Shown in pieces: positions 1,413 through 40,202 of a DNA stretch of 64,000 nt. The stretch comes from Sandaracinaceae bacterium (GTDB taxonomy: Bacteria; Myxococcota_A; Polyangia; Polyangiales; Sandaracinaceae). A program made the position numbers and the translations under genes. A model generated the notes under the pieces. The model was not told where the DNA came from. It saw only the letters and a list, made by a program, of their open reading frames with translations, and made no database searches. The stretch spans positions 67,909 through 131,908 of the forward strand of contig JBGAQA010000006.1 of NCBI GenBank assembly GCA_044220955.1, given 5' to 3'. Numbering within the stretch: the stretch's first letter is position 1; each line of letters opens with the position of its first letter.

Positions 1413-1419
1413 CGCCCGC

Positions 1420-1506: not shown

Positions 1507-1568
1507 TTTCGGCGTCGCGTGCGCGACGCGAGGGGGCCCGCTGGGCACCCCTAGCCCCCGTACTGCAC

Positions 1569-1598
1569 GGCCTCGCTTCGCGAGGCCTCTTTTTCTTG
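1569..1598 (+). terminator. intrinsic terminator after tRNA-Ser(CGA)
   Basis: GGCCTCGC-TTC-GCGAGGCC stem followed by TCTTTTTCTT. Confidence 0.7.
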
Positions 1599-1617
1599 GT
1601 TCGCGGAGCTGTTCCTG

Positions 1618-1705
1618 GGAGAGGTGACCGAGCGGTCGAAGGTGCACGACTGGAAATCGTGTGTACGGCAAAACCGTACCGCGGGTTCGAATCCCGCCCT
1701 CTCCG
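1618..1705 (+). tRNA. tRNA-Ser(GGA)
   Basis: GGAGAGG...CCTCTCC-G acceptor, anticodon arm CACGA-CTGGAAA-TCGTG, long variable arm, GGTTCGAATCC. Confidence 0.95.
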
Positions 1706-1709
1706 TGTC

Positions 1710-2300: not shown

Positions 2301-2322
2301 GCTCGTCCTGCCCCGCTAGTAA
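2294..2322 (+). promoter_or_regulatory. probable sigma70 promoter for tRNA-Ser(GCT)
   Basis: TTGACA (2294-2299), 17 nt, TAGTAA (2317-2322); overlaps the start of the opposite-strand gene. Confidence 0.5.
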
Positions 2323-2335
2323 CGCTGCCGCCTCG

Positions 2336-2423
2336 GGAGAGGTGGCCGAGTGGTCGAAGGCACTCCCTTGCTAAGGGAGCGTACGCCAAAAGCGTACCGT
2401 GGGTTCGAATCCCACCCTCTCCG
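2336..2423 (+). tRNA. tRNA-Ser(GCT)
   Basis: GGAGAGG...CCTCTCC-G acceptor, anticodon arm CTCCC-TTGCTAA-GGGAG, variable arm GTACGC-CAAAA-GCGTAC, GGTTCGAATCC. Confidence 0.95.
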
Positions 2424-23258: not shown

Positions 23259-23368
23259 CCAGCCGCCAGGATCGCAAGAGCCGCGAGGCGGGGTCAATGC
23301 CTCATCACGGTGCGAGCGCGGTCGCCGTGCTTGACCCTCCGCGCCCCCAGCCACATGCTCGCGCGCCC

Positions 23369-24682
23369 TTGGGAAGAGCACGCACGCGAACGAAGCCGCC
23401 CGCCCCGATCCGCGAGCACCCCTTCGGTCCGAGCCTCCGGGTCCTGCGCTATCGCCTCGAGAATGGCCTGACCATCCTCGTGCTGCGCGACCCGAGCGCG
23501 CCGATCGTCTCGTACCACACGTGGTTTCGCGTCGGCTCCCGGCACGAGACGCCCGGCAAGACGGGCCAGGCTCACCTGCTCGAGCACCTGATGTTCATCG
23601 AGACCGAGTCGCTCGCCGAGGGCGAGTTCGATCGCCTTCTCGAGGCGGAGGGCGGAGAGAGCAACGCCGCCACCTGGACGGACTGGACCTACTACTACGA
23701 GAACCTCCCGGCCTCGTCGTGGAAGCTGGCGGTGCGCCTCGAGGCAGGGCGGATGAACGGCCTGGTCCTGGCGCCGAAGCGCGTCGCCTCGGAGAAAGAG
23801 GTCGTCGAGAGCGAGCGGCGCGATCGCGTGGAGGACGACGTCGACGGCGCGGTCTCGGAGAAGCTCTACGCGAGCGTGTTCGGCCGGCGCCACCCGTACG
23901 GCTGGCCGACGATCGGCTGGATGCGCGACATCCGCGGCTTCTCGCCCGCCGACTGCCGCCGCTTCTACCGCGCGCACTACGCGCCCAACCACGCGACGAT
24001 CGTGGTTGCCGGGGACGTCGAGCCCGACGACGCGGTCGACACGATCACTCGCGAGTACGGGCACTTCCGCGCGTTCGCCACGCCCACGCCGCCGCCCCTC
24101 GCGGCGCCCGTGCTGCGGGGAGAGAAGCGCCTCGAGATGCAGTGGCCGACGCCGACCGAGAAGCTGGCGATCGGCTGGGTCGCGCCGCGCTTCGCGGAGC
24201 GTGATCACGCCGTGCTCGTCGTGCTGACCCACGTCCTGGCGTCCGGGCGCAGCGCTCGCCTGCACGTCGATCTGGTGCGCGAGCGCGAGATCGCCAGCGA
24301 GGTGCGCATGTCGATCGCGCCGTTCCGCGAGGCGTCGCTCGTGGATGGCTGGGTCTCGCTGCGCGAGGGCCACACGGCCAACGAGGCGCTGCGCGCCGTC
24401 GATCTGCAGATCGCGCGGCTCGGTCGCGAGCTCGTGCCCGCCGCGGAGCTCGACAAGGTGAAGAACGGCCTCGAGCTGTCCTTCCTCGGCGGGCTCGAGA
24501 CGGTCCCCGGCATGGCCGAGCAGATCGGGTTCTCGGAGACCGTCGTCGGCGATCCGAGCCACGCCTTCGCGCGCCTCGAGGAGTACCGGAGCGTGACGCC
24601 CGAGGACGTGCGCCGCGTCGCGTCGCGGGTGCTCCGCGCCGACGCGCGCACGATGGTGCGCGTCCGCCGAGGCCACGCTTGA
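23369..24682 (+). CDS. M16-family zinc peptidase, catalytic subunit
   Basis: LENGL, VGSRHE.PGKTG.AHLLEHLMF (HxxEH), NAATW.D.T.Y, HPYGWPTIG, YAPNHA; start uncertain (TTG 23369 follows TTGACC-N17-CATGCT; ORF open from 23297). Confidence 0.9.
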   Translation: MGRARTRTKPPAPIREHPFGPSLRVLRYRLENGLTILVLRDPSAPIVSYHTWFRVGSRHETPGKTGQAHLLEHLMFIETESLAEGEFDRLLEAEGGESNAATWTDWTYYYENLPASSWKLAVRLEAGRMNGLVLAPKRVASEKEVVESERRDRVEDDVDGAVSEKLYASVFGRRHPYGWPTIGWMRDIRGFSPADCRRFYRAHYAPNHATIVVAGDVEPDDAVDTITREYGHFRAFATPTPPPLAAPVLRGEKRLEMQWPTPTEKLAIGWVAPRFAERDHAVLVVLTHVLASGRSARLHVDLVREREIASEVRMSIAPFREASLVDGWVSLREGHTANEALRAVDLQIARLGRELVPAAELDKVKNGLELSFLGGLETVPGMAEQIGFSETVVGDPSHAFARLEEYRSVTPEDVRRVASRVLRADARTMVRVRRGHA

Positions 24683-25983
24683 GCGTCCGCGGTCGATTCG
24701 TCACGCCGGCGGGAACGGTGGTCCTCGTCGAGGAGAGCCACGCGATCCCGCTCGTCGACCTGACGGCCGTGCTGCGGAGCGGCTCGCTCGCCGATCCGGC
24801 CGACCTCGAGGGGCTCGCGCGCGTCGCCGCCCGGATGCTGCGCATGGGCACCGGGACGCGGAGCGCGGAGCAGACCGAGGAGACGCTCGAGCGGCTCGGC
24901 GCCTCGCTCGCGATCGACGTCTCGCACGGCACCATTCGCTTCATGGGGTCCGTGATCGCGCGGTCCTTTCCCGCGTTCCTCGAGCTCTTCGGTGAGATCC
25001 TGACGGCGCCGGCCCTGCGTCCGCGCGACCTGGCCCGGGTCAAGCGCGAGTCCATCGCGGACCTCGCGCAGCAGCGGGACAACGATCGGTGGCTCGCGAG
25101 CCGCGCGTTCCGACAGGGCCTCTTCGGAGACCATCCCTACGCGCGCTCGCCGCTCGGGACCGCCGCGAGCCTGCCGCGCATCAAGCGCGAGCACGTCGCG
25201 GACTACCTCGCGCGCCACGTGCGCGGTCCGAACCTCGTCGTCGGCGTCGCCGGAGACGTCGACTCGTCGTCGCTCCCCGCGCTCTTCGAGCGCGCGCTCG
25301 GCCCGCTGGCCCGCGCGCCCGTCCCGAGGACGCCGCTCGCCCCGCCGACGCGCCGCCGCGGTCGCCGCCTGGTGATCGTGGACAAGCCCGGCCGGACGCA
25401 GACGCAGATGTTCGTCGGCACGCTCGGATCGCGGCTGCGCGACCCGGACTTCCACACCCTCCTCGTGGCCAACACCGCGTTCGGCGGCACCTTCAGCGCG
25501 CCGCTCGTCCAGGAGGTCCGGGCGCGCCGAGGGTTCAGCTACTCGGCCTCGAGCCGTCTCGGGGCGGATCGCGAGCGCGAGGCGTGGACCGTCTTCACGC
25601 ACCCGTCTGCCGAGAACGTCGCGAGCTGCCTCGAGCTGGAGCTTCGACTCGTGGAGCGGTTCGTCCAGCGCGGCCCGTCCGCCCAGGAGCTGCGCTTCGC
25701 CAAGAGCTACCTCGTCAAGAGCCACGCCTTCGACCTCGACACCCCCCAGAAGCGCCTCGAGCCACGCGTCGAGGCGGAGGTGCACGGCCTGCCGCGCGCG
25801 TTCCACGAGCGCTTCGTCGAGCGTGTGTCGGCCGTCGAGCTCCCCGCGGCACGGAGCGCCGTTCAGCGCCGGCTCTCCTCGCGCGACCTGACGATCGCCC
25901 TGGTCGCCACCGCGCGTGACGTCGTCAGCTCTCTCGAGCGCCTGGTGGACGACGTTCGCGTCGTCCCCTTCGACCGCCTCTGA
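24679..25983 (+). CDS. M16-family peptidase, non-catalytic partner subunit
   Basis: GLARVAARML (no HxxEH), HPYARSPLGT, FGGTFSAPLVQEVRARRGFSY (R/Y motif); TTGA overlap. Confidence 0.88.
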   Translation: MSVRGRFVTPAGTVVLVEESHAIPLVDLTAVLRSGSLADPADLEGLARVAARMLRMGTGTRSAEQTEETLERLGASLAIDVSHGTIRFMGSVIARSFPAFLELFGEILTAPALRPRDLARVKRESIADLAQQRDNDRWLASRAFRQGLFGDHPYARSPLGTAASLPRIKREHVADYLARHVRGPNLVVGVAGDVDSSSLPALFERALGPLARAPVPRTPLAPPTRRRGRRLVIVDKPGRTQTQMFVGTLGSRLRDPDFHTLLVANTAFGGTFSAPLVQEVRARRGFSYSASSRLGADREREAWTVFTHPSAENVASCLELELRLVERFVQRGPSAQELRFAKSYLVKSHAFDLDTPQKRLEPRVEAEVHGLPRAFHERFVERVSAVELPAARSAVQRRLSSRDLTIALVATARDVVSSLERLVDDVRVVPFDRL

Positions 25984-26178: not shown

Positions 26179-26193
26179 TGGCACATCGGTTGC
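26179..26193 (+). promoter_or_regulatory. sigma54 (-24/-12) promoter
   Basis: TGGCAC-ATCGG-TTGC matches TGGCAC-N5-TTGC exactly, in a 550-bp intergenic region facing the operon. Confidence 0.7.
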
Positions 26194-26532
26194 GACGGGC
26201 GGACGCCCCAGGGACCCCTCTCGTTCGCGCGCGTGCGTCGGGTGACGTTCGCCGCCGATCGGGGCGGCCTCGGGCGAGGCTCGGTACGGACGACAGCGAC
26301 TCTTGGTGACGAAACCTGGTTGACAGGTACGCGCGGGTGGGTCCTACTCGCGCGCCCTCGGGCTCCACGCCCGTGCTCCGTCTCCTCGCGGGCGGACATC
26401 TCGTGGTCGGCGTTCGTCCGGCCGTGCTCCTTTTCTCTCTTCCTCGCTCTGTCCCCGGTCTCGAACGACTCGAAACCCGCTCGCATTCCACGGACTCGCA
26501 GCTCGACGCAGATGCTCGACGGAGAAGCCTCG

Positions 26533-27963
26533 GTGAACGATTCGAAGAACGCACACGCACGCGCGCACGGGGTCCTCGCTCTCGCGCTGCTCGCTCTGAC
26601 GATGGTCGCGTCCAGCGCGCGGGCGCAGACCGCCGACTCGACGACCGGCAGCGCTCCGACGGACGGCACGGCCGCGACGCCGGACCCCGGTGCGGCGCCT
26701 GAAGGCGGCGCCGCCACGGACGGCGCCCCGGCGGACGCCGGGTCCGCCGACACGACCACTGCGACCACCACGACCACGACGGCGGCCAGCCCCCCGTCGG
26801 ACGCGTCTGCGCTCGGGGACGGCTCGGGCACGACGACGCCGACGACGACGACGACGGCACCTGACACGACCACGACCACGACCACGACGACGCCGACGAG
26901 CGGCAACCCGGACGAGGTCGCCGAAGAGATCCAGTCCGAGCGCGAGCCGCTCGCGTGGCGCAACAGCTACTTCAACTACTCGATCAACTCGTCGTTCTGC
27001 TCGTTCTCGCGCGACTGTCAGCTCTCCTACAACCCGACCGTCTACACGTTCCTGTCGCTCTCGCCGCGCTGGTACCTGGATCCGGCGACGTTCTTCTCGT
27101 TCTACCAGGCGTTCTACATCGAGCACACGGACGACGACGGCGCGACCTACCAGCACGAGTTCCAGCTCTTCGACACCCGCATCGCGCTCAACCACCGCGA
27201 GGCGCTCGGCGACAACTTCCTCGTCGTCGTCGGCGGCTCCCTCTGGCTCCCGACGTCCAAGGGCAGCCAGGCGCAGCAGCGCTACTTCCGCCTGGGTGGC
27301 TCGCTCAGCGCCACGTGGTCGCCGAACGTGGGCGGGTTCAACCTCTCGCTCCAGACGTCGTACGTGCGCTGGTTCGCCGGCAGCAACACCGCGCTCACCC
27401 AGTCGCCCTACGCGGGCAGCCCCGCCGGCCCGACGCTCGCGACGCCGACCGGCGACCAGTCGGCCAACCAGGCCAGCTCGACGACGGGCGAGGTCGACCG
27501 CATCAGCGCCGGCATCACGGCGAACTGGGCGCCCCTCGAGGGCTTCACGATCACGCTCCAGATCTTCTACTTCTGGATCCAGGGGTGGGGCCTCGGCAAC
27601 GCCGCCATCGCCGCGAACACCGTGACGGGGTCGTCCATCCTGGTCGGTGACACGTCGCCGACGCACTGGCGGGCCTTCGACTCGTACGCGATCTACTTCC
27701 AGTACGACTTCGTGCCGTGGTTCCAGGGCTGGATCGGTTTCGCGAACTCGACCCAGCTCGCCTCGGTCATCAGCGAGGACGGCAGCGTCCGCTCGCCGGT
27801 CAACCTCTACGACATGCAGGTCTCGCTCGGCGCGACCATCACGCTCGACTCGCTCTACGAGTCGTTCGCGGTGTCCGGCGAGGACGACGGCCTGACGCCC
27901 GAGCAGCGGCAGCGCCGCCGCCAGGGTCTCGCACAGCGCTCGTCCAGCGGAGGCTCGCTGTGA
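26533..27963 (+). CDS. probable outer-membrane beta-barrel protein with Thr-rich N-terminal linker
   Basis: GGAGAAG RBS and GTG; Sec signal (ARA|Q); T/D/P-rich linker; many amphipathic aromatic strands (FLSLSPRWY, FNLSLQTSYVRWF, FTITLQIFYFW, YAIYFQYDF, VSLGATITL). Confidence 0.65.
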   Translation: MNDSKNAHARAHGVLALALLALTMVASSARAQTADSTTGSAPTDGTAATPDPGAAPEGGAATDGAPADAGSADTTTATTTTTTAASPPSDASALGDGSGTTTPTTTTTAPDTTTTTTTTTPTSGNPDEVAEEIQSEREPLAWRNSYFNYSINSSFCSFSRDCQLSYNPTVYTFLSLSPRWYLDPATFFSFYQAFYIEHTDDDGATYQHEFQLFDTRIALNHREALGDNFLVVVGGSLWLPTSKGSQAQQRYFRLGGSLSATWSPNVGGFNLSLQTSYVRWFAGSNTALTQSPYAGSPAGPTLATPTGDQSANQASSTTGEVDRISAGITANWAPLEGFTITLQIFYFWIQGWGLGNAAIAANTVTGSSILVGDTSPTHWRAFDSYAIYFQYDFVPWFQGWIGFANSTQLASVISEDGSVRSPVNLYDMQVSLGATITLDSLYESFAVSGEDDGLTPEQRQRRRQGLAQRSSSGGSL

Positions 27964-28043
27964 GCGCCAACCACCCCGTGAAGACAATCGAGACGACGAT
28001 GATGAACAACGCAGTCGACAGTGGTCGTGTGGAGGCCAAGACG

Positions 28044-31000
28044 ATGGCAAGCCTTCGGTGGGGTTACGTTCTCTCGCTCCTGGCGGTGCTCGGCTCGGGC
28101 GCGGCCTTCGGGGGCTGCGGCGACGCTCAGCCCGCGATCAACCAGGTCGGCACGAACGTGCTCGAGAAGAGCGCGCTCTCGGGCTCCTGGTACATGACCG
28201 AGCAGACCATCGACTTCGACTACGAGGCCGCCGGCCTCGGGTTCGTCGGCGAGATCTCGTCGGACGGCACCGGCGGCGGCATGGCCCGCATTCGCTGGGT
28301 CATCGACGAGGAGATGCTGTACGCGTACCGCGACTACCTCGCCACCGAGGACGCGCAGGACCCGACCGGGGATCCGACGGCGGCGCAGGGCTGGACGTCG
28401 TTCCTCGGCCAGCCGGTCGCCGCGTACCGCATCCAGAGCCACTTCGACATCCGCCGGCAGTACAACACGCTCACCGGCGAAGAGCAGAACGTCATCGTCG
28501 AGAACACGACGGACCGCCGCTGGTGGGAGCGCCGCTTCATGCGCGTCGACTTCTCGCGCAACATGATCGCGGCCTGGTACGGCACGTCCAACGACGTCTC
28601 GGAGCTCTTCGGCCAGGTCCGCCGCGAGCCCGCGGACATCATGATCCAGGGCAACTCGGACTTCCCCGCCGAGTGGCGCCCGCAGTTCATCCGCATGGGC
28701 TGTACGTCGCCGACCGACACGAACTGCAGCGCTGGCGATCAGCTCTTCGCGTCCGACTACGCGCACGGCGATCTCTACAGCATGAGCTTCGTGACGCAGC
28801 AGCTTCTCTCCCCGGGCTCGGTCTTCTACCCGGGCTACGGCGTCGTCCCCTACTGCGGCGAGGCAAACCAAGGCCTGCCCGAGTGCGCGAGCGTGGTGGT
28901 GGCGGTCCGCACGAGCTTCCTGCGCGTCAGCCCGACCCGTCAGTACGATCGGATGCAGTTCGCCGACGACCTCTTCGATCGCGCGGGCTACTTCCGGCTC
29001 GAGCGCAACACCTTCGATCACTCGGTCGCGGTCGACGGGCCGAACGGCCACACGGACGCGGGTGACATCGCGTGGGGTGAGACCGACTTCCGCAATTACG
29101 GCGCGTACCGCTTCAACATCTGGCGCGAGTGGCGGGACCCCGCGACCGGCGCCGCCATCCCGTACTCGGCCCGCACGGTCCGTCCGATCCACTGGTTCAC
29201 GAGCCGCGAGCTCCCCGCGCACCTCGTGATGCCGGCCTTCCAGTCGGTCAGCGAGTGGAACTCGGTGCTCATGGGCGTGATTCGGCAGCGCCGTGGCCAG
29301 GCGCTGCCGACCTACGGTCGCATGGACTGCCAGGACCAGGACCCGGCGGGCTACTGCTTCTGCCAGCAGGATCCGGCCGATCCGTCGCGCATCCTCAACC
29401 CGACCTGCGCGGGCCGCTACGACCCCTTCGCGCGTCCGGACATGGCGCAGAGCCACTACGACTGCTGGGTTGGTTTCGGCGCTCCCGGCTCGGAGCAGAC
29501 CCTCGGCGAGCTGATGTCGGACGCCGACACCGCGAACAACCCGGAGCCTGACTGGAACGACCCCGGGATCAGCCGTGCCTCGTTCAACCGATGGTTCGGC
29601 GCGCACATGGTCGGCACCGAGTGTGCGGACATCCTGTCGGTCAACGGCTGCAACCTCGGCGCCGTCGCGGCGAACGGCGGCACCACCGAGGGGCTCGACT
29701 GCCAGGAGCGCGGCGACATCCGCTTCAGCCTCCTCAGCTTCGTCGACCAGCCGGGCACGCCCTTCCTCGGCGTCGCCCAGTTCCGCGCCGATCCGGTGAC
29801 GGGCGAGCTCTTCGGGGCGGATGCGAACATCGGCGGCCCGGCGCTCAACACGTACCGCACGCGCGCACTTCAGCAGTACGACCTCATCAACGGGCGCCTG
29901 AGCGATCAGGAGTTCTTCACGGGTGAGGACGTCCGCGCTTACCTCGAGGCCGCCAACCACGTCGATCTCCCGGCGCCGCCCCGCATCGACTTCAGCGTCG
30001 CAGGCATGGAGGGCTACGAGCCGCTCAACGGCGCCGCCGTCCAGTCCGAGCTCGAGTCCCGCATGAGCGAGTTCCAGGCGCGGGCCGAGCTCCTCCAGGG
30101 GCCCGAGGGTCGTGCTGCGATCTACGAGGATCGCCTCCACACGCTCGCCGGCGGTGACATCGAGGCTCGCCTGCTCGACAACGAGGAGGGCTTCGTGCTG
30201 GCCGGCATGAACATCCGCCCCGACGGCAACGTCGGCTCGCTGGGTCGCGAGTTCCTGGACCTCGCCTCGCCGTTCCGCGGCGACCTGGCGCGCACGATCG
30301 AGGACGCGCACGTGTCGAACTACCGCATCTCGGCGGCAGGCCTCCACATGCCCAACGCGTTCGTGGACGACTCGGTCATGTGGTACGTGAACCAGGCGCA
30401 GCTCGCGAGCTGGACGCGGGCGCACGTCGAGTTCGACATCGACCGCCGCCTGTATCGCCAGACCGAGGTCCACGAGATGGGCCACTGCCACGGCCTGCGC
30501 CACGACTACGGCGGCAGCGCGGACACGAACAACTACCCCGCCGAGTACTACCGCATCGCGGCCCAGTACCCGCTGCCGAACCCCACCACGTTCGACACGG
30601 ACGGCCACACGGGCTTCAACCTCACCGAGCAGCAGGCCTACCAGACGGCCTACACGAACGCGCGCCACCAGCGCGAGCTCGCGGGCATCGACGCGTGGAT
30701 GAGCTCGTCGGTCATGGACTACACGGGCGCGTGGTACGAGCGCATCACCGGCTCGGCCCAGCACGACTGGATGGCGATCGGCCTCGGCTACGGCAACCTC
30801 GTGGACCTCTACCACAACGCGCCGGGCGCCGATCACCAGCCGCTCGCGAACGTGAACCCGGCGACGGTCGCGCGTGAGTACGCGACCTACTACACGGGCG
30901 GCGGAAGCTGCGCGAGCGACACGGACTGTGCGTACTCGACGTCCGGCGAGCGCTCCGGCGATCTGACGGCCGCCAACACCGGCTCGGGCCTCACGCAGCA

Positions 31001-32543
31001 CTGCGTCACGAACCCGAACGTGCCGGCCCGGCGGGTCTGCTCGAACTTCGACGACGACGCCTCGGCGATGATGGCCACGCTCAACGACAGCTCGGAGTGG
31101 ATCCCGGTGTCGTACCGCTACTGCGAGGACTACCGCGGCGTGCTCCGCACGCTGCCCTGGTGCAACCAGTTCGACGAAGGTGACAGCTTCCGCGAGATGG
31201 TGCGCAACGCGCAGGAGGCGTACGACCGCTCGTACATCTTCGCCGCGTTCCGCCGCTACCGCCGAACCTTCGACACGGGCGCCTACATCCAGAACCTGCT
31301 GCGCTACTGGATGCCGCTCGTGAACATCGAGCAGAACCTGCTCTATCGCTACAGCCACGAGGGAGCGGCGTTCCGCGCGGAGACCGGGGCGTGGGGCTTC
31401 CAGGACGAGTTCCTGGCCACCGCCGACATCCTCAACTACTTCGCGCGCACGCTCTCGTCACCCGCCGTCGGTACGTACACGTACAACACGGGCTACGCGC
31501 GCTACATGCGCTGCCCGCCTGGCTCGGGGTGCAGCAACGACCCCAACGAGACGGGTAACCTGCACATCGACCTCGGCCAGGGACGCTTCTACTACTCCGT
31601 CTATCAAGCGGGTCTGACGGGCATCAACCGCATCGAGCGCATCGGCGTCTTCATCGACAAGATCATCACGATGCAGCTGATGACGATCCGTGGCCTCGCG
31701 CCGTACTACGGCGCGGACGCGGTCTTCTACACGAACCTCTACGACCTGTTCCCGAACGAGGTGAACCAGGTGTTCGGAGGCATGATCGGCGACCAGCCGG
31801 ACCAGTACATGCCGCGCGTGACGTGCTCCGCGTCGAGCGCGTTCCCGGTCTGCAACGATCCGCAGATGGTCTACATGAACATCTATCGTGGTGACTGTCG
31901 GACCGACGCGCCCGGCACGGGCAACTGCTTGCCCGACCCGATCACCGACACGTACAGCCACGCGACGCACCCGAACCTGTACGTCCTGGACGGCGGCGCT
32001 GGCGTGCTCCTCCAGAGCTACGCGGCGATCTTCGGCCTCACGGAGTTCCCGGTCTACTACGACACCACCTTCGCCTCGCAGACGTTCCTCTGCGTCGAGG
32101 GCCAGGGCGACTGCACCACGGCCACAGGTGGGGCGGGCGTCGACTATGCGCGCTACACCAGCTCGCGCCTCAGCCAGAGCTACCTCGCGTGGCAGGTCGA
32201 CCCGCAGGGCAGCACCATCCGGCAGCACTCGATCGCCTTCGAGATGGTCAACGAGGCGGCGACCGACTCGGTCATCTACCAGGCCCTGCAGGTCTACCGC
32301 GGCGACTTCGGTGGCCCCGGCGGGCCGTACAGCGCCAGCAACTTCGTGGGTCCGTTCGCCGGCCTTCCGGCGGAGCTCACGGCCCTCGGCTACACGATCC
32401 CCGGCGTGAGCGCGCAGGTCGACACCGAGATCGATCGGCTCTACGGCCGCATCATCGACCTCGAGTCGTTCTTCAACTACCTCATCCAGCTCGAGCGCGA
32501 CATCGGCATCGGGCCCTACATCTACACGCGGCCGGAGCTCTGA
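28044..32543 (+). CDS. giant Cys-rich lipoprotein, metzincin-type zinc metalloprotease
   Basis: GGAGG RBS; lipobox AFGGC; HEMGHCHGLRH (30471-30503) and Met-turn SSVMDY; ~1499 aa. Confidence 0.85.
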   Translation: MASLRWGYVLSLLAVLGSGAAFGGCGDAQPAINQVGTNVLEKSALSGSWYMTEQTIDFDYEAAGLGFVGEISSDGTGGGMARIRWVIDEEMLYAYRDYLATEDAQDPTGDPTAAQGWTSFLGQPVAAYRIQSHFDIRRQYNTLTGEEQNVIVENTTDRRWWERRFMRVDFSRNMIAAWYGTSNDVSELFGQVRREPADIMIQGNSDFPAEWRPQFIRMGCTSPTDTNCSAGDQLFASDYAHGDLYSMSFVTQQLLSPGSVFYPGYGVVPYCGEANQGLPECASVVVAVRTSFLRVSPTRQYDRMQFADDLFDRAGYFRLERNTFDHSVAVDGPNGHTDAGDIAWGETDFRNYGAYRFNIWREWRDPATGAAIPYSARTVRPIHWFTSRELPAHLVMPAFQSVSEWNSVLMGVIRQRRGQALPTYGRMDCQDQDPAGYCFCQQDPADPSRILNPTCAGRYDPFARPDMAQSHYDCWVGFGAPGSEQTLGELMSDADTANNPEPDWNDPGISRASFNRWFGAHMVGTECADILSVNGCNLGAVAANGGTTEGLDCQERGDIRFSLLSFVDQPGTPFLGVAQFRADPVTGELFGADANIGGPALNTYRTRALQQYDLINGRLSDQEFFTGEDVRAYLEAANHVDLPAPPRIDFSVAGMEGYEPLNGAAVQSELESRMSEFQARAELLQGPEGRAAIYEDRLHTLAGGDIEARLLDNEEGFVLAGMNIRPDGNVGSLGREFLDLASPFRGDLARTIEDAHVSNYRISAAGLHMPNAFVDDSVMWYVNQAQLASWTRAHVEFDIDRRLYRQTEVHEMGHCHGLRHDYGGSADTNNYPAEYYRIAAQYPLPNPTTFDTDGHTGFNLTEQQAYQTAYTNARHQRELAGIDAWMSSSVMDYTGAWYERITGSAQHDWMAIGLGYGNLVDLYHNAPGADHQPLANVNPATVAREYATYYTGGGSCASDTDCAYSTSGERSGDLTAANTGSGLTQHCVTNPNVPARRVCSNFDDDASAMMATLNDSSEWIPVSYRYCEDYRGVLRTLPWCNQFDEGDSFREMVRNAQEAYDRSYIFAAFRRYRRTFDTGAYIQNLLRYWMPLVNIEQNLLYRYSHEGAAFRAETGAWGFQDEFLATADILNYFARTLSSPAVGTYTYNTGYARYMRCPPGSGCSNDPNETGNLHIDLGQGRFYYSVYQAGLTGINRIERIGVFIDKIITMQLMTIRGLAPYYGADAVFYTNLYDLFPNEVNQVFGGMIGDQPDQYMPRVTCSASSAFPVCNDPQMVYMNIYRGDCRTDAPGTGNCLPDPITDTYSHATHPNLYVLDGGAGVLLQSYAAIFGLTEFPVYYDTTFASQTFLCVEGQGDCTTATGGAGVDYARYTSSRLSQSYLAWQVDPQGSTIRQHSIAFEMVNEAATDSVIYQALQVYRGDFGGPGGPYSASNFVGPFAGLPAELTALGYTIPGVSAQVDTEIDRLYGRIIDLESFFNYLIQLERDIGIGPYIYTRPEL

Positions 32544-32592
32544 GGTGACGACCATGACGACTCGGAACCGCGACCTCGAGGGCTCGACCACC

Positions 32593-35500
32593 ATGAACTC
32601 GACCATGATGAAGAAGCAAACGCTCGGACTCGCTCTCGTGCTCTCCGTCGCCGGCGCGCTCGCGCTCGGTGGCGCGGGATGCTCGGTGCTCCCCCAGGTC
32701 AACCGCGTCCAGACCAACCTCATCGACAAGAGCGTCTTCGAGGGTGACTGGTGGTACACGCGCACGGTCATCCAGCTCGACGACGACGCGGCCTACGCGA
32801 TCGGCGCTGCGGGCTCGGGCGCGCCGTGGGCGGGCGCGATGGCGAACTACGACATCGCCGCGCAGTCGGGCGTCATCGGGCGCATCCGCTGGGTGATCGA
32901 CGAGAACTTCCTTTACGCGTACCGCGCGACGGAGGTCATCCCGGGCTCGAACGCGGACGCGCACAGCGCGTCGTTCCGCGGCTCACCGCTCGCCGTCTAC
33001 CGGATCGAGGCGCACGTCGACGTCCGCCAGGAGTACAACCCCGGCACCGGCGAGCCCACCAACGTCATCTCCGAGAATTCCTCGGATCGGCGCTGGTACG
33101 ACCGCCGCTTCATCCGGGTCGACTGGTCGCAGAACCTCGTGACCTTCGGTCAGTTCGGCGACTCGCTCGAGATCGACGAGCTCTTCGGTACGTTCCGCCG
33201 CGAGTCGGCGCCGCTCGGCGTGGCCGACATCGGCAACAGCCACCAGAGCATGCTCAACGGCACGGCCGACCTGCCGGCCGAATGGGCTCCGCAGATCGTC
33301 CGAGTCGCCGACGACGCGAGCTACCGCTTCCGGAACGAGTGGCCGACGAACCTCCAGGACACCGTCCACTACATGTCCTTCGTCACGCAGGAGATCTGGA
33401 CCCCGGCGCAGTGCTTTGGCTCCGCCTGCGGCACCAGCATCGCGATCACGACGCGCGACGCGTTCCTCCGGATTCCACCGAACCACGAGTATGCGGTCGA
33501 GACGCTCGCGAACTCGGAGTACGACCGCTTCGGCATCATCCGGACCGAGCAGCGCACGTACCTGCGCGGCGGCCTCGATCGCTCGCAGCTCGCCGAGCAC
33601 TGCCGCGCGGACACCGACTGCTCGACGGGCCAGTGCGACGAGTCGCAGCACATCTGCGTCGGCGGCCTCACCGACGAGCTGGGCGAGACGGACTTCCTCA
33701 CGTACTACCGGCTCCGCCACAACTTCTACGCCAACTCGTTCCGCCACGACGCGGCTGGCGCGACCATCCCGTGCGTGTCGGACTGGCAGTGCTCGGGCCG
33801 CTTCGACGACAACGGGGACGGCATGTTCGACGGCGTCCCCGGCTCGCTCTGCGACCAGGCAGCTCACGTCTGCACGCTTCCGCTCGCGGATCGCGACGTG
33901 CGCGAGGTCGCCTACTACCTCTCGCCCGGCTACCCGCGCTACCTGCTGCGCAGCTCCTTCGAGCTCGTCGGGCAGTGGAACGAGGTCTTCATGCGCGGCA
34001 ACCGCGCGCTGAGCGGTCGCGCGGCGCCGACGGGCATGCCGGTGGCGTGTCAGGGCAACAACCCGACCGACTACTGCTTCTGCGGCAGCAACGGCGTGGT
34101 GGCCGGCGAGGTCGATCCGGCGACGCGCACCTGTCCGTTCCGCGTCGACTGGTTCGCGAGCGTCGCGGAGCAGACGGCCGCGGGCGTGACCGACCCCTAC
34201 AACTGCTGGATCGAGGGACCGGACGACGTGGCGCACCCCGAGGCGTTCGACTCGTACGACGCCAGCTGGACCGGCCTGCACTTCACGTCGGATCCCTCGA
34301 TGGACAGCGAGTGCATGCTCGTCCTGCACGTGAACAGCTGTGACGCCCATCCGGCGACCGCGACCGATCCGGGCCAGCCCTGCGAGCAGCTCGGCGACAT
34401 CCGGTACAACATGTTCAACTACGTCAGCGCGGCAGCCTCGGGCTTCTGCGGCGTCATGCAGCCGATGCAGGATCCGACGAACGGTGAGGCGATCGTGTCG
34501 CCCATCAACATGGGCGGACAGTGCCTGGACAACTTCGGTGTTCAGCCGCTCGAGTGGTGGCCGATCCTTCGTGGCGAGGTCCCGACGGACGACATCCTCA
34601 GCGGTGACGAGGTCCGGCGGTACTTCGCCGCCATCGGCTCGACGATCGGGCCGACGGGCATCGCGCCAGCCGCGGACCCGGGCTTCGATCCCCCCGACCC
34701 GAGCCGCCCCGCGCTGCCGGTCGACATGCACTCGTTCTTCATGGATCAGATCGCCGCGAACCTTCCGGGGGCGCGCCAGCTCCACGGCTCGGAGGGCCGC
34801 GCGATGCTGTTCAGCGACCGCATGGGCCGCGTCGCAGGCACCGAGCTCGAGCGCCGCTTCGCGGAGGCCTCGGCGAGCGAGGGCTTCCCGGCTCCGACCG
34901 AGGTGGAGCGCATGGCCGCGACCGCGCTCGATGGCCCGGGCGTCATCCCGCAGCGGATGGATCTCGACGACGCCGCGACGATGGCGCGCATGTCGCCGTT
35001 CCAGCCCAGCTTCCTCGACGGCACCCTCGACGACATCCGCCACGAGCGCGAGCTGATGAACCACGGCTCCTGCATGATGATGGAGCGGCCGGCGGTGGTG
35101 TACGCGTCGCAGTTCGGCGAGTACTGGGCGAACGCGTTCCGCGGCGTCTCGTTGCCCGAGGCACGCGTGCGCTGGGCGCAGGCGTGGCACCGGGCGGTCA
35201 TGCAGCACGAGCTCGGCCACGGCCTCGGGCTCGAGCACAACTTCGCCGCGACGCTCGACCGGAACAACTACCTTCCTGCCTACTACAACATCGCGCTCGC
35301 CGACCTGCGGAACAACCGTGACGGCTCGGCCGGGCCGGACGGCATCCCCGACCTCGTGCTGCCGCGACTCGAGGACTTCGACCTCGCGGCCAACGGCGGT
35401 AACCAGGACAACCAGATCACGGGCGACGAGCAGACGCGCTGGCTGCGCGCGATGCAGGACGTGCGTCACCGTCGCAACGCCGCCGGCATGGGGAACTACA

Positions 35501-37356
35501 CCACCGCGTCGACGATGGACTACCCGGGTGACCTCTCGGACATCATGGGCATCGGTCTCTACGACCGCGCCGCGGTGTACTTCAACTACTTCAACGAGAT
35601 CGAGGCCTACTCGAACCACTGCATGGACACGGACGGCGACGGCATGATCGAGGAAGCCGAGTGCCGTAACCCGGGCAACGTCGCCGCGACCTCGCCCTCC
35701 AACCCGAACTACCCGCAGACCTCGGCCGAGGGCATCCTCCGGTCGGACCAGTTCTCGCGCGACCTCATCCCGTGGTACCGCGGTGGTGACCACTGCTCGA
35801 CCGACTCGGAGTGCCCGTACTCCTCGGCCGGCGCGGGCAACGGGCAGACCATCACGCAGCGCTGCGTGACGAACCCGCGCTACTCGACCATCCCGCTCCC
35901 GTGCGGGACGGCCGGGTCGGACGCGACTCACTGCATCTGCTCCAACATCGACTCCGACTTCGTCGACTACGCGGACGGCAACGCCTACCGCGACCGGCGC
36001 TCGGGTCAGGAGATCTCGCCCGTCACCTATCTCTTCTGCTCGAACCCGCGCCTCAACGACATCTCGTGGTGCAACACGTTCGACGCGGGCGAGAACTTCC
36101 AGGAGGTGATCGCGAACTGGCGCTCCGAGCTCCAGAGCCGCTACCTGACGAGCTACTTCCGGCGGCATCGGCGCGGCTTCTATGCGGGGCCCCGCGCGAC
36201 GCGCTACATCCCGGACGCAGCGAAGATCTACCAGCACCTGCTCTTCCGCCTCATCTACGAGCCGCGCTTCACGACCAACAGCGGCCCGCTCGGCTTCGAC
36301 GATCAGTATGCCGCGTCGGTGGACGTCATGAACTGGTTCGCGGAGATCGCGACGACGCCGGAGCCCGGATCGTACGACTTCGACGCGACGATCGGCGACC
36401 ACGGCGCATACGTCCACATGGGTGAGGAGCCGGGCATGCCCGGGGCCGAGCTCTCGCTCGACGTCGGCCAGGGCTTCTACCACTGGTCCCGCTACCAGGA
36501 CGGCGCGCTCGGGTTCTTCCGGATGGAGCGCGTCGGAACCTTCTGGGACAAGCTCTACGCCCTCTACGCGCTCACCATCCGCGACTGGGGTCTGAGCTAC
36601 ACCATCGACGAGCGCTACTACATCAACTTCTTCTCGTTCTTCCCGGTGGAGATGACCGAGCTCTTCGGTGGCTTCATCCTGGACAACGACGACTGGTTCG
36701 CGCCGCGCGTCCGCATGGACCCGGTCGGCGGGACCTCGCACGTGCAGTACGTGAACTGGTTCCGCGCGCCGGACCTCTATGGCCGCGGCTGCAGCGACCC
36801 GACCACCGGCGTTCGCGGTCCGTGCCGGCGCGCGACCTCGGTCGCGTTCCCGAACCCCGTCATCCAGGGCGCGTCGGACGACATCCTCCGCTTCTACGCC
36901 ACGAGCTTCGCGCTCGCCGAGTTCCCGGTCTTCTACGACAACTCGTGGGAGCGCCGGCTCGACATCATCGCCCTCGGCGGCGGCGACACCATCACGATCC
37001 CCGACACCCAGCGTGACGGCACCCAGACGTGCGCGTACGGCACGAGCGTGCTGACGTCGCCCGGCCACGTGAACGGCTGCACGGCGGCCGACGCCGACTA
37101 CATCACCTACACGTCCGACCACCTGCACACGACCTACGTCGCGGTGAAGATCCGGTCGCGTGACACCTACAACCTGGAGGAGGAGCAGCTGGGCTTCCAG
37201 TACCTCCTCGGGCTGACCCAGGACCAAGAGCTGGTGCACACGCTGCCGGCCGGCGCCGAGCGCGACCGCGTGGCCCAACGTCTCCAGCGCAACGAGTCGT
37301 TCCTCTGGGTGCTCATCCAGCTCCAGCACGCGTACGGCATCAACTCGTACCTCTGA
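32593..37356 (+). CDS. giant Cys-rich lipoprotein, metzincin-type zinc metalloprotease (paralog)
   Basis: lipobox GGAGC; HELGHGLGLEH (35206-35238) and Met-turn ASTMDY; colinear motifs with the upstream gene; start uncertain within 32545-32608. Confidence 0.85.
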   Translation: MNSTMMKKQTLGLALVLSVAGALALGGAGCSVLPQVNRVQTNLIDKSVFEGDWWYTRTVIQLDDDAAYAIGAAGSGAPWAGAMANYDIAAQSGVIGRIRWVIDENFLYAYRATEVIPGSNADAHSASFRGSPLAVYRIEAHVDVRQEYNPGTGEPTNVISENSSDRRWYDRRFIRVDWSQNLVTFGQFGDSLEIDELFGTFRRESAPLGVADIGNSHQSMLNGTADLPAEWAPQIVRVADDASYRFRNEWPTNLQDTVHYMSFVTQEIWTPAQCFGSACGTSIAITTRDAFLRIPPNHEYAVETLANSEYDRFGIIRTEQRTYLRGGLDRSQLAEHCRADTDCSTGQCDESQHICVGGLTDELGETDFLTYYRLRHNFYANSFRHDAAGATIPCVSDWQCSGRFDDNGDGMFDGVPGSLCDQAAHVCTLPLADRDVREVAYYLSPGYPRYLLRSSFELVGQWNEVFMRGNRALSGRAAPTGMPVACQGNNPTDYCFCGSNGVVAGEVDPATRTCPFRVDWFASVAEQTAAGVTDPYNCWIEGPDDVAHPEAFDSYDASWTGLHFTSDPSMDSECMLVLHVNSCDAHPATATDPGQPCEQLGDIRYNMFNYVSAAASGFCGVMQPMQDPTNGEAIVSPINMGGQCLDNFGVQPLEWWPILRGEVPTDDILSGDEVRRYFAAIGSTIGPTGIAPAADPGFDPPDPSRPALPVDMHSFFMDQIAANLPGARQLHGSEGRAMLFSDRMGRVAGTELERRFAEASASEGFPAPTEVERMAATALDGPGVIPQRMDLDDAATMARMSPFQPSFLDGTLDDIRHERELMNHGSCMMMERPAVVYASQFGEYWANAFRGVSLPEARVRWAQAWHRAVMQHELGHGLGLEHNFAATLDRNNYLPAYYNIALADLRNNRDGSAGPDGIPDLVLPRLEDFDLAANGGNQDNQITGDEQTRWLRAMQDVRHRRNAAGMGNYTTASTMDYPGDLSDIMGIGLYDRAAVYFNYFNEIEAYSNHCMDTDGDGMIEEAECRNPGNVAATSPSNPNYPQTSAEGILRSDQFSRDLIPWYRGGDHCSTDSECPYSSAGAGNGQTITQRCVTNPRYSTIPLPCGTAGSDATHCICSNIDSDFVDYADGNAYRDRRSGQEISPVTYLFCSNPRLNDISWCNTFDAGENFQEVIANWRSELQSRYLTSYFRRHRRGFYAGPRATRYIPDAAKIYQHLLFRLIYEPRFTTNSGPLGFDDQYAASVDVMNWFAEIATTPEPGSYDFDATIGDHGAYVHMGEEPGMPGAELSLDVGQGFYHWSRYQDGALGFFRMERVGTFWDKLYALYALTIRDWGLSYTIDERYYINFFSFFPVEMTELFGGFILDNDDWFAPRVRMDPVGGTSHVQYVNWFRAPDLYGRGCSDPTTGVRGPCRRATSVAFPNPVIQGASDDILRFYATSFALAEFPVFYDNSWERRLDIIALGGGDTITIPDTQRDGTQTCAYGTSVLTSPGHVNGCTAADADYITYTSDHLHTTYVAVKIRSRDTYNLEEEQLGFQYLLGLTQDQELVHTLPAGAERDRVAQRLQRNESFLWVLIQLQHAYGINSYL

Positions 37357-37402
37357 CGCACCTGCACGGTCACGGCTCCGCCGGTGACCCCACCCAGTCG
37401 AG

Positions 37403-37436
37403 AGCCCCGATCCTCACGGATCGGGGCTTTCGGTTT
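37403..37436 (+). terminator. probable intrinsic terminator of the protease operon
   Basis: AGCCCCGATCC-TCAC-GGATCGGGGCT 11-bp stem followed by TTCGGTTT. Confidence 0.7.
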
Positions 37437-37564: not shown

Positions 37565-37575
37565 CTTAGGTCGCT

Positions 37576-37838
37576 GTGCTCTTCGGCGAGGCCACGCTCT
37601 CCAGGCCAGCCTCACCGTCGTGTGCCTTGGCTTCCTTTCTTCGTCCTTTCTTCGTCCTTTTCTCTTTCGCCGTCTGTGTCGCGTTCGCTTCTGCTTCGCC
37701 TCGCTCGCCTTGCTCTTGGCTCGCTTCTAGGAAGACGTCGCTCGCGGACCGCATGTTCCTTCCGTCGTGCGGTCTTGGCTGATCCACACGGCCCGAGCCG
37801 CAAGGCGACCGGCCGCGTCTTGACGGTCCGCGATTTTT
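37576..37838 (+). ncRNA. candidate sigma54-dependent CU-rich small RNA (or long leader)
   Basis: follows the sigma54 motif; no A in 37615-37728; hairpins 37747-37774 and GCC-GCAA-GGC; ends in a TTTTT tract; no convincing ORF. Confidence 0.4.
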
Positions 37839-37909
37839 CACGAACGCCGCGCTCTTCGCCGAGCGCGGCGTTCGCTTTTCAGGCCGCGGGTCGGGTATAT
37901 TCGCCCACG

Positions 37910-38305
37910 ATGACGAGAGGTGGCTGGCGTCGAGCGGGTGTCGTCGCGCTCGCGCTCGCGCTCGGGGCGTGCGGTGCCGCCTCGGCGGAGCTGCGGCGGG
38001 CGGAGCAATCGTACGAGCAAGCGCGCTACGAGAACGCGCTCTCGTGGCTCGCGGACCTCGAGCCCAACGCGCCGACCCTCGACCATGGCGAGCGCGCTCG
38101 GTACTTCTACGTGCGCGGGATGACCGAGTATCGCCTCGGGCACCGCCCGGAGGCGCTCTACTATCTCGCCGTCGCGCGTGAGATCTCGGGCGAGGACGGG
38201 GAGGGCCTGCGCGAGGAGCAGCGGGACCTGATGACCCGCACGCTCGCCGAGCTGATGCCGACCGATCCGTTGACCCATCAGCCGCCGGACGCGCCGGCGG
38301 ACTGA
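37910..38305 (+). CDS. small TPR-like lipoprotein
   Basis: LALGAC lipobox; AEQSYEQARYENAL, YFYVRGMTEYRLG..EALYYL. Confidence 0.75.
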   Translation: MTRGGWRRAGVVALALALGACGAASAELRRAEQSYEQARYENALSWLADLEPNAPTLDHGERARYFYVRGMTEYRLGHRPEALYYLAVAREISGEDGEGLREEQRDLMTRTLAELMPTDPLTHQPPDAPAD

Positions 38306-38321: not shown

Positions 38322-40202
38322 TCATCCGTTCTTCAGCGCGGCCTGACGTGCGAGCCAGGTCGCGGCGGCGGCGTGTCCGAGGAGCCATGGGCCGGTCACG
38401 AGGACGGGCAGCGCGACGAGCGTCGTCGGAACGACGGCCTCGACGAGGAGGTAGGCGGCGAAGCCCAGGCTGACGCCGACCACCAGCGGCAGCAGGCGCT
38501 TGTTCTGCAGCAGGAGCAGCACGCCGCCCAGCGGGATCAGCGCCGTCAGGGCGATCGTCGCGGTGAGCACTCCGACGTGCGCGAACGAGCCGGCGTGGGC
38601 GAGCGCGCCCGGAACGCCCCCGGCCAGCCAGGGCTCGAGCAGGCCGAGCCCGAGCGCCGAGAACGGCAGCACGGCGAGGCCCCCGGCGACCACGAACGCG
38701 ATCGCCGTGGTGAGCGCCGGCGCGACGCCCAGCTTGCCGCGGCGCCTCAGGCTCCCGAGGACCAGGGCTCCGAGCGCGAGCGCGGCCAGACCGCGCATAC
38801 CGCTCTCCGTGTCCTCGGTCCGCGTGAGCGCCCCGTCCGCGCGCACCAGACCGGCGCCGTAGTGCTCGACGTCGCCGACCGGCTCGGCCGTGTCGCGGAG
38901 CACTCGCTCCACCGCATCGGGATCCGTGACGCCGGAGGCCCGTACGAGCGCCGCGACTCCGGCGACGTGGGGGGCGGCCATCGACGTGCCCTGCCACGCG
39001 AGGTAGTCGAAGCGGCGCACGTCGCGGCCGACGATCGTGTTCTGCAGTACGCCGTCGGGCAGCCCGTCGCCGTTCTGGTCGACGCGCGTGTCGCCCCCGG
39101 GCCCCACCACGTCGAGGCCCTGCCCGTAGCACGAGTAGAAGGAGAGCTCGCGGTCGTAGCGAACGGCGCCGACCGCGATGACGTGGTCGTGGCGCGCCGG
39201 GTACTCGACGGCGTTCGCCGACGAGTTGCCGGCGGCCGCCACGATCACGACGCCGTGCTCGTGCGCATAGTCGATCGCGCGCTCGACCGTCCGCGAGCGC
39301 ATCCCGCCGCCGAGCGACATGTTGATCACGTCGGCGCCGTGATCGGCAGCCCAGCGGATCGCCGACGCGATGGCCGCCCAGCCGCCCGCTCCGCTCGCGT
39401 CGAGCACCCGGAGCGGCATGATCGAGGCCGAGGGCGCGACGCCTGCAACGCCGAGGCCGTTGTCGGTGCTCTGCGCGATCGTGCCCGCCACGTGCGTGCC
39501 GTGCCCGTGTTCGTCGTCCGGGTACGCGTCGTCGGCCACGAAGTCCCAGCCGGGAACGAAGCTCGTCTGCCCGAGATCGGGCGCCTGCACGAAGCCGCCC
39601 GCGCTCCGGTACGCCACGCCGGTGTCGATGACGGCCACCACCACGCCCTCGCCGCGGCCGCGCGGCCAGGCGGCGGGCATGCCGATCTGATCGAGGTGCC
39701 ACTGGTGCGAGTAGTAGGGATCGTTCGGCACGAACCGGTCGCCCCCGTCGCGCGGTGCGACGAGGACGTCCGGCCTCGCGATCGCGCCGGCGTCCGTGCG
39801 CTCCGGCACGGCCCAGAGGTGCTCGACCTCGACCGTCTCGACCTCTGGATCGGCGCCGAGCGCGCGGAGCACGTCGGGGACCTCGCTGCGCGGGACGCTC
39901 AGGCGGTAGATCTGCGCGTCGGCCTCCATGGGGTGGTCGAGGTCGGGCAGGTACGCGTAAGGCGCGACCGCCTCGACGAGCTCGCGGCCCACGACGTCGC
40001 GGTCCTCGGCGGAAGCGCCGTCGTCGAGATCGACCACGATCGCGCCGGTCTCGGGATCCAGCCGCGCGGGGATCGCGTCGACGGCGCTGACGTCCGGCTC
40101 GGCGGCGCCGAGGCCAGAGGAGCCGACCCGGACGGCGATCGAGGCCGAGATCAGCGCCAGCCCGGCGACGACGAGGATTGCGATGCCTGCGCGACGCGAC
40201 AT
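38322..40202 (-). CDS. S8 (subtilisin-like) serine protease with multi-TM C-terminus
   Basis: VAVIDTG, HGHGTHVAGTIA, AAAGN, GTSMAAPHVAG; about 5-6 hydrophobic helices at the C-terminus; GGAGG RBS. Confidence 0.92.
   Translation of the reverse strand: MSRRAGIAILVVAGLALISASIAVRVGSSGLGAAEPDVSAVDAIPARLDPETGAIVVDLDDGASAEDRDVVGRELVEAVAPYAYLPDLDHPMEADAQIYRLSVPRSEVPDVLRALGADPEVETVEVEHLWAVPERTDAGAIARPDVLVAPRDGGDRFVPNDPYYSHQWHLDQIGMPAAWPRGRGEGVVVAVIDTGVAYRSAGGFVQAPDLGQTSFVPGWDFVADDAYPDDEHGHGTHVAGTIAQSTDNGLGVAGVAPSASIMPLRVLDASGAGGWAAIASAIRWAADHGADVINMSLGGGMRSRTVERAIDYAHEHGVVIVAAAGNSSANAVEYPARHDHVIAVGAVRYDRELSFYSCYGQGLDVVGPGGDTRVDQNGDGLPDGVLQNTIVGRDVRRFDYLAWQGTSMAAPHVAGVAALVRASGVTDPDAVERVLRDTAEPVGDVEHYGAGLVRADGALTRTEDTESGMRGLAALALGALVLGSLRRRGKLGVAPALTTAIAFVVAGGLAVLPFSALGLGLLEPWLAGGVPGALAHAGSFAHVGVLTATIALTALIPLGGVLLLLQNKRLLPLVVGVSLGFAAYLLVEAVVPTTLVALPVLVTGPWLLGHAAAATWLARQAALKNG

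Follow-up and report, generated by a model that had tools for sequence, protein, structure and literature searches.

A conserved module of a predicted outer-membrane barrel and metzincin lipoproteins in a Sandaracinaceae bacterium and its possible role at the cell surface

The locus and its three proteins

The stretch of DNA analysed here (hereafter the window: 64,000 nt of a Sandaracinaceae bacterium, assembly GCA_044220955.1, contig JBGAQA010000006.1, positions 67,909–131,908 of the forward strand) carries three consecutive genes, encoding a predicted outer-membrane beta-barrel (gene 1) and two very large paralogous proteins with metzincin and lipoprotein signatures (genes 2 and 3). Their features are collected in Table 1 in window coordinates, which are used throughout, and the start codons of genes 1–3 were picked by eye. 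An earlier note on this DNA had reported an exact sigma54-type motif (TGGCAC-N5-TTGC) before an operon, three closely spaced co-oriented genes and a closing hairpin, and all of these were located: the genes are separated by gaps of 80 and 49 nt, and none of 200 shuffles folded as well as the hairpin, which is missing from the output of a simple terminator scan. The exact motif has two matches in the window (0.03 expected) and nine in the whole 7.5 Mb genome, the second one in the window not being conserved across four same-genus genomes. Contigs from the RNA libraries of three sludge studies map to parts of genes 1, 2 and 3, several without any mismatch, and one crosses the sigma54-type motif. 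Such contigs tell nothing of strand or level and do not establish one continuous transcript; for these reasons, and because of the contig across the promoter motif, they do not demonstrate transcription.

Table 1. Features of the locus and its surroundings (window coordinates; ORF, open reading frame)
Feature	Position	Strand	Remarks
Four tRNA genes	1224–2423		
Two M16 peptidase genes	23297–24682, 24679–25983	+	PF00675, PF05193; upstream of the sigma54-type site
sigma54 (-24/-12)-type motif	26179–26193	+	TGGCAC-N5-TTGC, exact; 354 nt upstream of the gene 1 start used here
Gene 1 (P0001), barrel	26533–27963	+	ORF, 476 aa
Pro-Thr-Ser motif after strand 5	27250–27258	+	Aligned to FapF PTG
Barrel loop after strand 7	27373–27495	+	Probably extracellular; predicted contact with the protease N-domain (complex model)
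Barrel loop after strand 9 (L5, residues 352–380)	27586–27672	+	Beta-hairpin, probably extracellular; main predicted docking site (models)
Helical tail of the barrel	27846–27963	+	D-D-G-L-T-P-E-x-R-Q-R-R-R-Q-G-L
Gene 2 (P0002), metzincin lipoprotein	28044–32543	+	ORF, 1499 aa
Gene 2 lipid Cys25	28116	+	Lipobox FGGC, read from sequence
Gene 2 YNxxTGE beta-hairpin (residues 136–151)	28449–28496	+	In predicted barrel interface; Y116 and E122 invariant (93 rows)
Gene 2 zinc motif	30471–30503	+	HEMGHCHGLRH
Gene 2 Met-turn (SSVMDY)	30708–30722	+	SVMDY
Gene 3 (P0003), paralogous metzincin lipoprotein	32593–37356	+	ORF, 1587 aa
Gene 3 lipid Cys30	32680	+	Lipobox GAGC, read from sequence
Gene 3 zinc motif	35206–35238	+	HELGHGLGLEH
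Gene 3 Met-turn (ASTMDY)	35509–35523	+	STMDY
Terminator-like hairpin closing the unit	37398–37433	+	-32.8 kcal/mol, z -6.1
Second sigma54-type motif	37550		
Lys-rich ORF	37566–37841	-	Short
C/U-rich intergenic stretch	37576–37882	+	After the operon
Hairpin and T-run	37843–37882	+	End of the C/U-rich stretch
TPR (tetratricopeptide repeat) lipoprotein-like gene	37910–38305		Downstream of the operon
Subtilase (S8)	38322–40202	-	C-terminal membrane segments; converges on the TPR lipoprotein-like gene

Gene 1 comprises a signal peptide ending in AxA (read by eye), a Thr/Ala/Pro-rich linker (residues ~32–124), a 12-stranded barrel and a helical C-terminal tail, and has no Pfam or NCBIfam match. Residues 125–476 (352 residues) were modelled from an 88-row alignment, yielding a mean pLDDT (predicted local distance difference test) of 85 and a helix followed by 12 long strands, which are joined by loops of 10–37 residues on one side and by turns of 2–7 residues on the other. 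FapF ranks first in a Foldseek search with this model (E 2e-8), and a wide structural aligner places the COG4313 channel 4rl8 at the top (Z 17.0, root-mean-square deviation (rmsd) 4.0, 235 aligned), in a near-tie with GalP (16.7), KdgM (16.5), FapF (16.5) and NanC (16.2). Moreover, a 121-row profile of the barrel family matches FapF by sequence (E 3.8e-4), aligning RElT...D...PtSk over REST...D...APTGK. Because of these rankings and of the profile match, the predicted barrel, which the earlier note had already recognised as such, is on this evidence distantly related to the FapF/COG4313 class. PF13557 does not match gene 1 and is weakly detected in 4 of the 121 family members (best E 3.2e-4), and one Atlas cluster is 40% PF13557 at 0.95. 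The family counts 585 representatives at E<=1e-10, and a cultured organism, Sandaracinus amylolyticus, encodes the barrel as well (AKF04762.1). Over 101 barrel rows, P116 and S118 of the Pro-Thr-Ser (PTS) motif are conserved at 0.99 and 0.97, respectively. As for the helical tail beyond the last strand, it is strongly conserved within its own family and absent from distant barrels.

With FapF of Pseudomonas (PDB 5o65, 5o67, 5o68) and the COG4313 protein Pput2725 (4rl8; PF13557), gene 1 shares the 12-stranded barrel, a PTG-type motif after strand 5 (here PTS), an RE-T...D motif and a long N-terminal linker. It differs in its low identity (~10%), in having a Thr-rich linker with no N-terminal coiled coil seen and, in the lineage of the window, in ending with the helical tail. 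FapF exports unfolded amyloid subunits and bears its PTG in an extracellular loop, while for COG4313 proteins an import of hydrophobic molecules has been proposed (PMC5557850 and PMC6173800, cited, like PMC9946355 below, from excerpts). As in Fap, a peptidase gene lies within the same unit (PMC5557850), but the partner of the barrel is here a metzincin lipoprotein of 1200–1700 aa instead of a C39 peptidase and amyloid subunits, and neither of these two Fap families was found among the window neighbours or the 39 representatives of recurring neighbour clusters.

Genes 2 and 3 (GC3, i.e., G+C content at third codon positions, of 0.94) align end to end with 27% identity over 1685 columns (E 1e-156) and contain 28 and 36 Cys, respectively. 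Both carry the motifs RIRWVIDE, GETDF, WCN.FD.G, ER.G.F.DK and EFPV.YD, a lipobox, the Cys of which shows a conservation of 90% or more in the protease alignments, and a HExxHxxGxxH zinc motif with its Met-turn. The H, E, G, H, G and H of the zinc motif, along with M867 and Y869 of the Met-turn, are invariant over 135 rows; among 120 full-length homologs, 118 keep HExxHxxGxxH and the remaining two keep the three His with Gly replaced by Asn. Asn at the place of this Gly (HE.GHT.N..H) was observed in the first proteases of some Myxococcaceae pairs, and Ala in two solo proteases (substituted loci: L157, L169, L209, L212, L215). The segment right behind the lipid Cys is conserved too, in sequence as well as in length: in 67 of 93 rows, an I-D/N-R-V motif follows after 5–6 residues (the pattern leaves the others unmatched), a degree of conservation that a plain tether does not usually show.

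The model of gene 2 (residues 25–1224; pLDDT 81, predicted template modelling score (pTM) 0.87) consists of an N-terminal beta domain, a metzincin domain split by large Cys-rich insertions and a helical C-terminal part. Foldseek returned no match at E<=0.001 for this 1200-residue model, and the wide aligner found EcxA (Z 9.6, rmsd 4.0, 188 aligned), serralysin (8.7) and MMP-9 (8.0), zincin-fold proteins filling nearly all of its top 35 rows, with weak rows (Z 4.3–4.9) to small beta-barrels as regards the N- and C-terminal domains. In Pfam and NCBIfam, nothing exceeds the cut-off for genes 2 and 3: PF16313 reaches 15.9 and 18.6 bits (cut-off 24.2) through the zinc motif only, i.e., 23–27 of 316 positions, and a third paralog on contig C111 of the same genome passes it over 26 positions only. 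The DUF5117 hidden Markov model matched none of 93 protease N-domains, and a feature score of 0.80 for the resemblance of the N-terminal domain to DUF5117 is a lead only. Likewise, a PDB sequence search with gene 3 gave no match at E<=1, and one with the protease profile gave weak matches to the zinc motif only (best E 0.068), while some homologs bear the NCBI name ‘zinc-dependent metalloprotease’. Altogether, the intact zinc motif, the Met-turn and the model of gene 2 support genes 2 and 3 as metzincin-class proteins with predicted protease activity. The metzincin catalytic fold, as modelled for gene 2, is shared with EcxA (4l6t chain A) and the DUF4953/PF16313 ‘Met-zincin’ proteins, yet the proteins of the window are far larger, Cys-rich and, by their lipoboxes, lipidated, and are accompanied by a barrel gene instead of a toxin B subunit gene. 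The metzincin identity, the lipoboxes and the colinear motifs put forward in the earlier note are borne out, whereas its DxDxDG-type motifs, announced for both proteins, hold for gene 3 (two strict ones) and not for gene 2 (none).

Barrel and protease across Myxococcota

The distribution of the two families was surveyed in 301 Myxococcota genomes, in which related genomes are not independent, using for the barrel a broad profile built partly from the barrels of the surveyed genomes themselves. The protease was found in 162 genomes and the barrel in 154, i.e., both in 150, the protease only in 12, the barrel only in four (two borderline) and neither in 135; the expectation that would have told against coupling, that of proteases usually devoid of a barrel, did not come true. 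As a narrow profile had found the barrel in 87 genomes only, its first-pass absences are attributable to profile sensitivity.

The 87 genomes of the narrow-profile pass supplied 80 barrel loci, at which the protease lies directly downstream of the barrel in 35 and directly upstream in one, and no other neighbour of the barrel recurs as often. In the family of the window, the order barrel–protease–protease is found in 25 of 30 genomes (2 of the 25 split over contigs; one further unpublished genome is left out of this count), and 10 genomes have an extra barrel beside the third paralog, this barrel being downstream in six and divergent in four. Where the protease pair has no adjacent barrel, a barrel exists elsewhere in the genome in five out of five cases, and in many genomes one barrel gene stands alongside two or three protease genes. 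Among named records, the adjacent pair reaches one titled Bdellovibrio sp., and the protease reaches Bradymonadales, with the barrel elsewhere in the genome. A survey built around a record titled Bdellovibrio sp. yielded genomes that also belong to the Myxococcaceae set, and thus does not bear on Bdellovibrionota. Altogether, the linkage is maintained across three different gene orders.

In seven Myxococcaceae genomes, 20 protease loci were chosen, of which all but one (19) show a barrel immediately upstream (10 of 11 when counting only loci picked blind to barrel presence), and the barrels form three clades that track the type of the protease and not the genome (18 of 19 agree, with one mismatch). 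This within-genome test was used in place of the distance correlation between adjacent barrels and proteases (Spearman 0.70, n=60), which was set aside because kinship alone yields such a value. Covariation between the two proteins over 60 paired rows peaked at z 6.1, below all 10 shuffled pairings (6.2–7.9), a depth too low to be informative. In a broader set of 81 genomes, from the family of a record titled Myxococcaceae, a strong protease match was obtained in 34, a weak one in six and none in 41, and 26 of the 36 genomes of at least 9 Mb have no strong match.

In a protease tree (FastTree, 120 sequences, 920 columns, midpoint root), genes 2 and 3 fall in sister clades (supports 0.93 and 1.0, joint support 1.0), and the Myxococcaceae pair stems from a separate duplication (support 1.0). 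Judging from this tree, tandem protease pairs arose at least twice independently. Since a single protease is present at most barrel-adjacent loci, the conserved unit is a barrel and one protease, the trio being secondary. Hence, the coupling of barrel and protease in the earlier note stands, but its three-component unit does not: the conserved unit holds one protease, and the barrel gene lies elsewhere in several families.

Predicted complex and possible functions

Barrel residues 125–469 were modelled together with mature residues 1–345 of gene 2, giving a complex score of 0.66 (runs of 0.68, 0.66 and 0.64) against 0.00 for the best of three controls; the mark for this score was reached by 116 of 157 solved pairs and 2 of 215 mismatched ones, counts that hold only approximately for self-made alignments. 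The runs share at least 86% of their contacts, with a partner pLDDT of at least 63. In the model, the barrel loops after strands 7 and 9 contact protease residues 1–22 (lipid Cys included) and the YNxxTGE hairpin. Both docking motifs are kept in gene 3 and in distant homologs, and the protease side of the interface is conserved above the rest of its domain (0.56 vs. 0.43). No similar complex surfaced in PDB searches with gene 3, the barrel profile or the protease profile. The model supports a binding of the protease by the barrel, and the barrel-assisted protease complex imagined in the earlier note is thereby upheld in part, as a predicted contact on what is probably the outer face.

Indeed, the length of the contacting loops and the alignment with FapF suggest that these loops are extracellular, in which case the lipid anchor would lie at the outer leaflet. 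A protease on the inner leaflet, degrading or processing in the periplasm what crosses the barrel, as FapD does for Fap, would agree with the facts that most outer-membrane lipoproteins are established to face the periplasm (PMC9946355) and that FapF acts alongside a periplasmic peptidase (PMC5557850). However, every modelled contact falls on the long loops after odd-numbered strands, opposite to the short turns, and the loop bearing PTS matches the extracellular loop beta5–beta6 of FapF (PMC5557850), so that we hold a periplasmic protease to be quite improbable.

The reading that we prefer, and to which we give about an even chance, is that the barrel serves as a docking platform through which a large zinc protease is retained at the surface of the cell, to digest outside protein. 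According to this scenario, both proteins would be exported by Sec, the protease lipidated and the barrel inserted, as their signal peptides and lipoboxes suggest; the lipoprotein would then arrive at the outer leaflet, where its first 22 residues and its YNxxTGE hairpin are predicted to pair with the barrel loops L4 and L5. There, the HExxHxxGxxH/Met-turn site, whose motifs are present, would cleave the substrate, and the barrel, or other channels, may let small products in, peptides feeding the cell, which is the weakest step. Because both paralogs retain the same docking motifs, they are likely to be alternative partners of one barrel. Surface location, protease activity, substrate and transport are all elements that we infer from sequences and models, as are the prey digestion, peptide uptake and matrix remodelling suggested in the earlier note.

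Several observations weigh against a docking platform. First, the docking model covers no more of gene 2 than its initial 345 mature residues, with a partner pLDDT of about 64 and self-made alignments, and the Z-scores to metzincins are middling. Second, on the barrel, the interface is no better conserved than the remaining residues (0.35 vs. 0.39), and the top-conserved barrel residues (E73, T75, D90, P116, S118, S121) lie outside of it, which implies that the barrel has another conserved job, only loosely explained by docking; these invariant residues would favour some transport role. Third, the protease family is missing from 139 of the 301 genomes and is thus not required for every myxobacterial lifestyle, and the genome of the window has a single barrel in total, its third paralog, on C111, being without one within 25 kb. 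This paralog (C111, ~65900–69900, minus strand) is ~1300 aa long, with an intact zinc motif and lipobox. Finally, 44 of the 80 barrel loci, including whole families, show no protease within ~8 kb or to the contig end (seven of these loci end within 3.4 kb of the barrel and three are weak matches). The latter point, along with the fact that kin share gene order, so that co-occurrence overstates coupling, would suit a peptide porin and a protease that are merely co-regulated parts of one nutritional programme, with no physical contact. Such a programme would nevertheless explain poorly the cognate co-duplication inside genomes, the linkage in three gene orders and the complex score, and we find it very improbable.

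The barrel might also act in export. If it were a dedicated FapF-like exporter of the unfolded protease, perhaps passing the lipid anchor through a lateral gate at PTS, docking would be the end state only. FapF, its nearest relative by fold and profile, is a polypeptide exporter in which the PTG motif has been proposed as a lateral gate (PMC5557850), and the PTG-type motif is nearly invariant here; in addition, single barrel genes serve two or three proteases in many genomes, and barrels co-diverge with proteases. Yet, if its 28–36 Cys were paired into disulfides in the periplasm, a cargo of 1200–1700 residues would have difficulty passing a 12-stranded pore, the modelled contact joins rim loops to a folded domain, and CglB arrives at the surface without its partner barrels (PMC9946355). 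We thus regard a dedicated exporter as rather unlikely. A FapF-class translocon that first exports and then holds the protease would amount to a new secretion route for surface lipoproteins, with cognate pairs co-duplicating; it is a doubtful possibility, which, if true, would span half of Myxococcota.

Alternatively, the same surface complex may not serve feeding at all, and instead process or shed the own surface or matrix proteins of the cell under sigma54 control. Indeed, of 13 Polyangiales loci with the three-gene order, 8 keep a sigma54-type site ahead of the barrel, the large insertions around the catalytic domain could limit access, and several paralog types coexist within one genome. 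On the other hand, among all 104 barrel loci the site occurs in no more than 10 (opposite-strand control: 0 of 104) and is lineage-specific, so that the sigma54-type motif reported in the earlier note is conserved in most of these Polyangiales three-gene loci and not at barrel loci at large. Furthermore, no substrate-like neighbour recurs, the flanks varying by lineage and being mostly housekeeping or signalling genes. All in all, a role limited to own-surface processing seems to us unlikely.

Whatever its function, the docking platform envisioned here would have parallels in known systems. SusC-SusD and TbpA-TbpB each pair an outer-membrane barrel with a surface lipoprotein, and both rely on a 22-stranded TonB-dependent barrel with a plug domain, while in type XI secretion (Slam) a barrel gene adjoins the gene of its cognate surface lipoprotein. 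In the present module, by contrast with SusC-SusD and TbpA-TbpB, the barrel has 12 strands in a 352-residue model and the lipoprotein partner is a predicted enzyme. In Myxococcus xanthus, the Glt barrels (GltA/B/H) recruit and retain the surface lipoprotein CglB (PMC9946355), i.e., an integral outer-membrane barrel retains a surface lipoprotein, a contact that is predicted in our case. The barrels of Glt-CglB, TbpA-TbpB and SusC-SusD are, however, of the TonB type or part of a gliding machine, and their lipoproteins are adhesins or binding proteins. With respect to type XI secretion, in which DUF560 has its role (PMC9946355), neither DUF560 nor TPR gave a Pfam match in the 121 barrel-family members, and the fold class differs from Slam. 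Unlike in type Va autotransporters, barrel and protease are separate ORFs with separate signal peptides, both in the window and in the loci examined. The module is therefore not a member of Glt-CglB, SusC-SusD/TbpA-TbpB, Fap or type XI secretion, and the trio did not match a characterised system, as the earlier note had anticipated.

Our literature search found no description of such a barrel–protease pair, subscription papers and supplements lying outside of it (proteomics supplements could list homologs), and the excerpts of PMC3222651 and PMC10971235 make no mention of one. Hence, we consider the module to be a real, conserved and undescribed variant of the barrel-plus-surface-lipoprotein theme. 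Both protein families are devoid of a curated model and the protease of a solved relative, even though the two occur together in half of the sampled Myxococcota and in nearly all genomes of the family of the window. The patchiness in Myxococcaceae, with an absence from most large genomes there, may explain why work on model strains missed the module. How myxobacterial lipoproteins reach the cell surface is an open question (PMC9946355), as is protein digestion at the surface of myxobacteria and related predators, and the module offers a two-gene handle on both, with a predicted interface as a specific target for mutation. For the FapF/COG4313 barrel class, enzyme docking would be a third type of function.

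Neighbouring genes and other elements

Homologs of the two M16 peptidases encoded upstream of the sigma54-type site are found near the barrel or the protease pair in 10 loci, nine of Polyangiales and a distant one (L065). The M16 pair is syntenic in relatives, and its membership of the unit is uncertain: having no signal peptide by eye, it could act inside the cell and complete the degradation of peptides, or else reflect plain synteny. On the other side, the S8 subtilase was not seen in the related loci examined for neighbours. Reading the 835-aa upstream neighbours as BamA was rejected, these being a DEAD-box helicase, a beta-propeller and a Lon-type protease.

The C/U-rich stretch following the operon ends in a hairpin and T-run that are conserved in four same-genus genomes, as is the 5' part of the stretch. 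It has no Rfam match and folds no better than shuffles. RNA-library contigs from three studies cover ~37590–37800 at depths of 27, 21 and 6, their strand being undefined. The stretch is a candidate small RNA, the alternative being the short Lys-rich ORF on the minus strand.

In one family in which the barrel is unlinked from the protease, a divergent bactofilin precedes the barrel, and two conserved genes (~200 and ~620 aa, with no Pfam match) follow it (loci L039, L045, L047, L048, L082, L083, L096 and L106).

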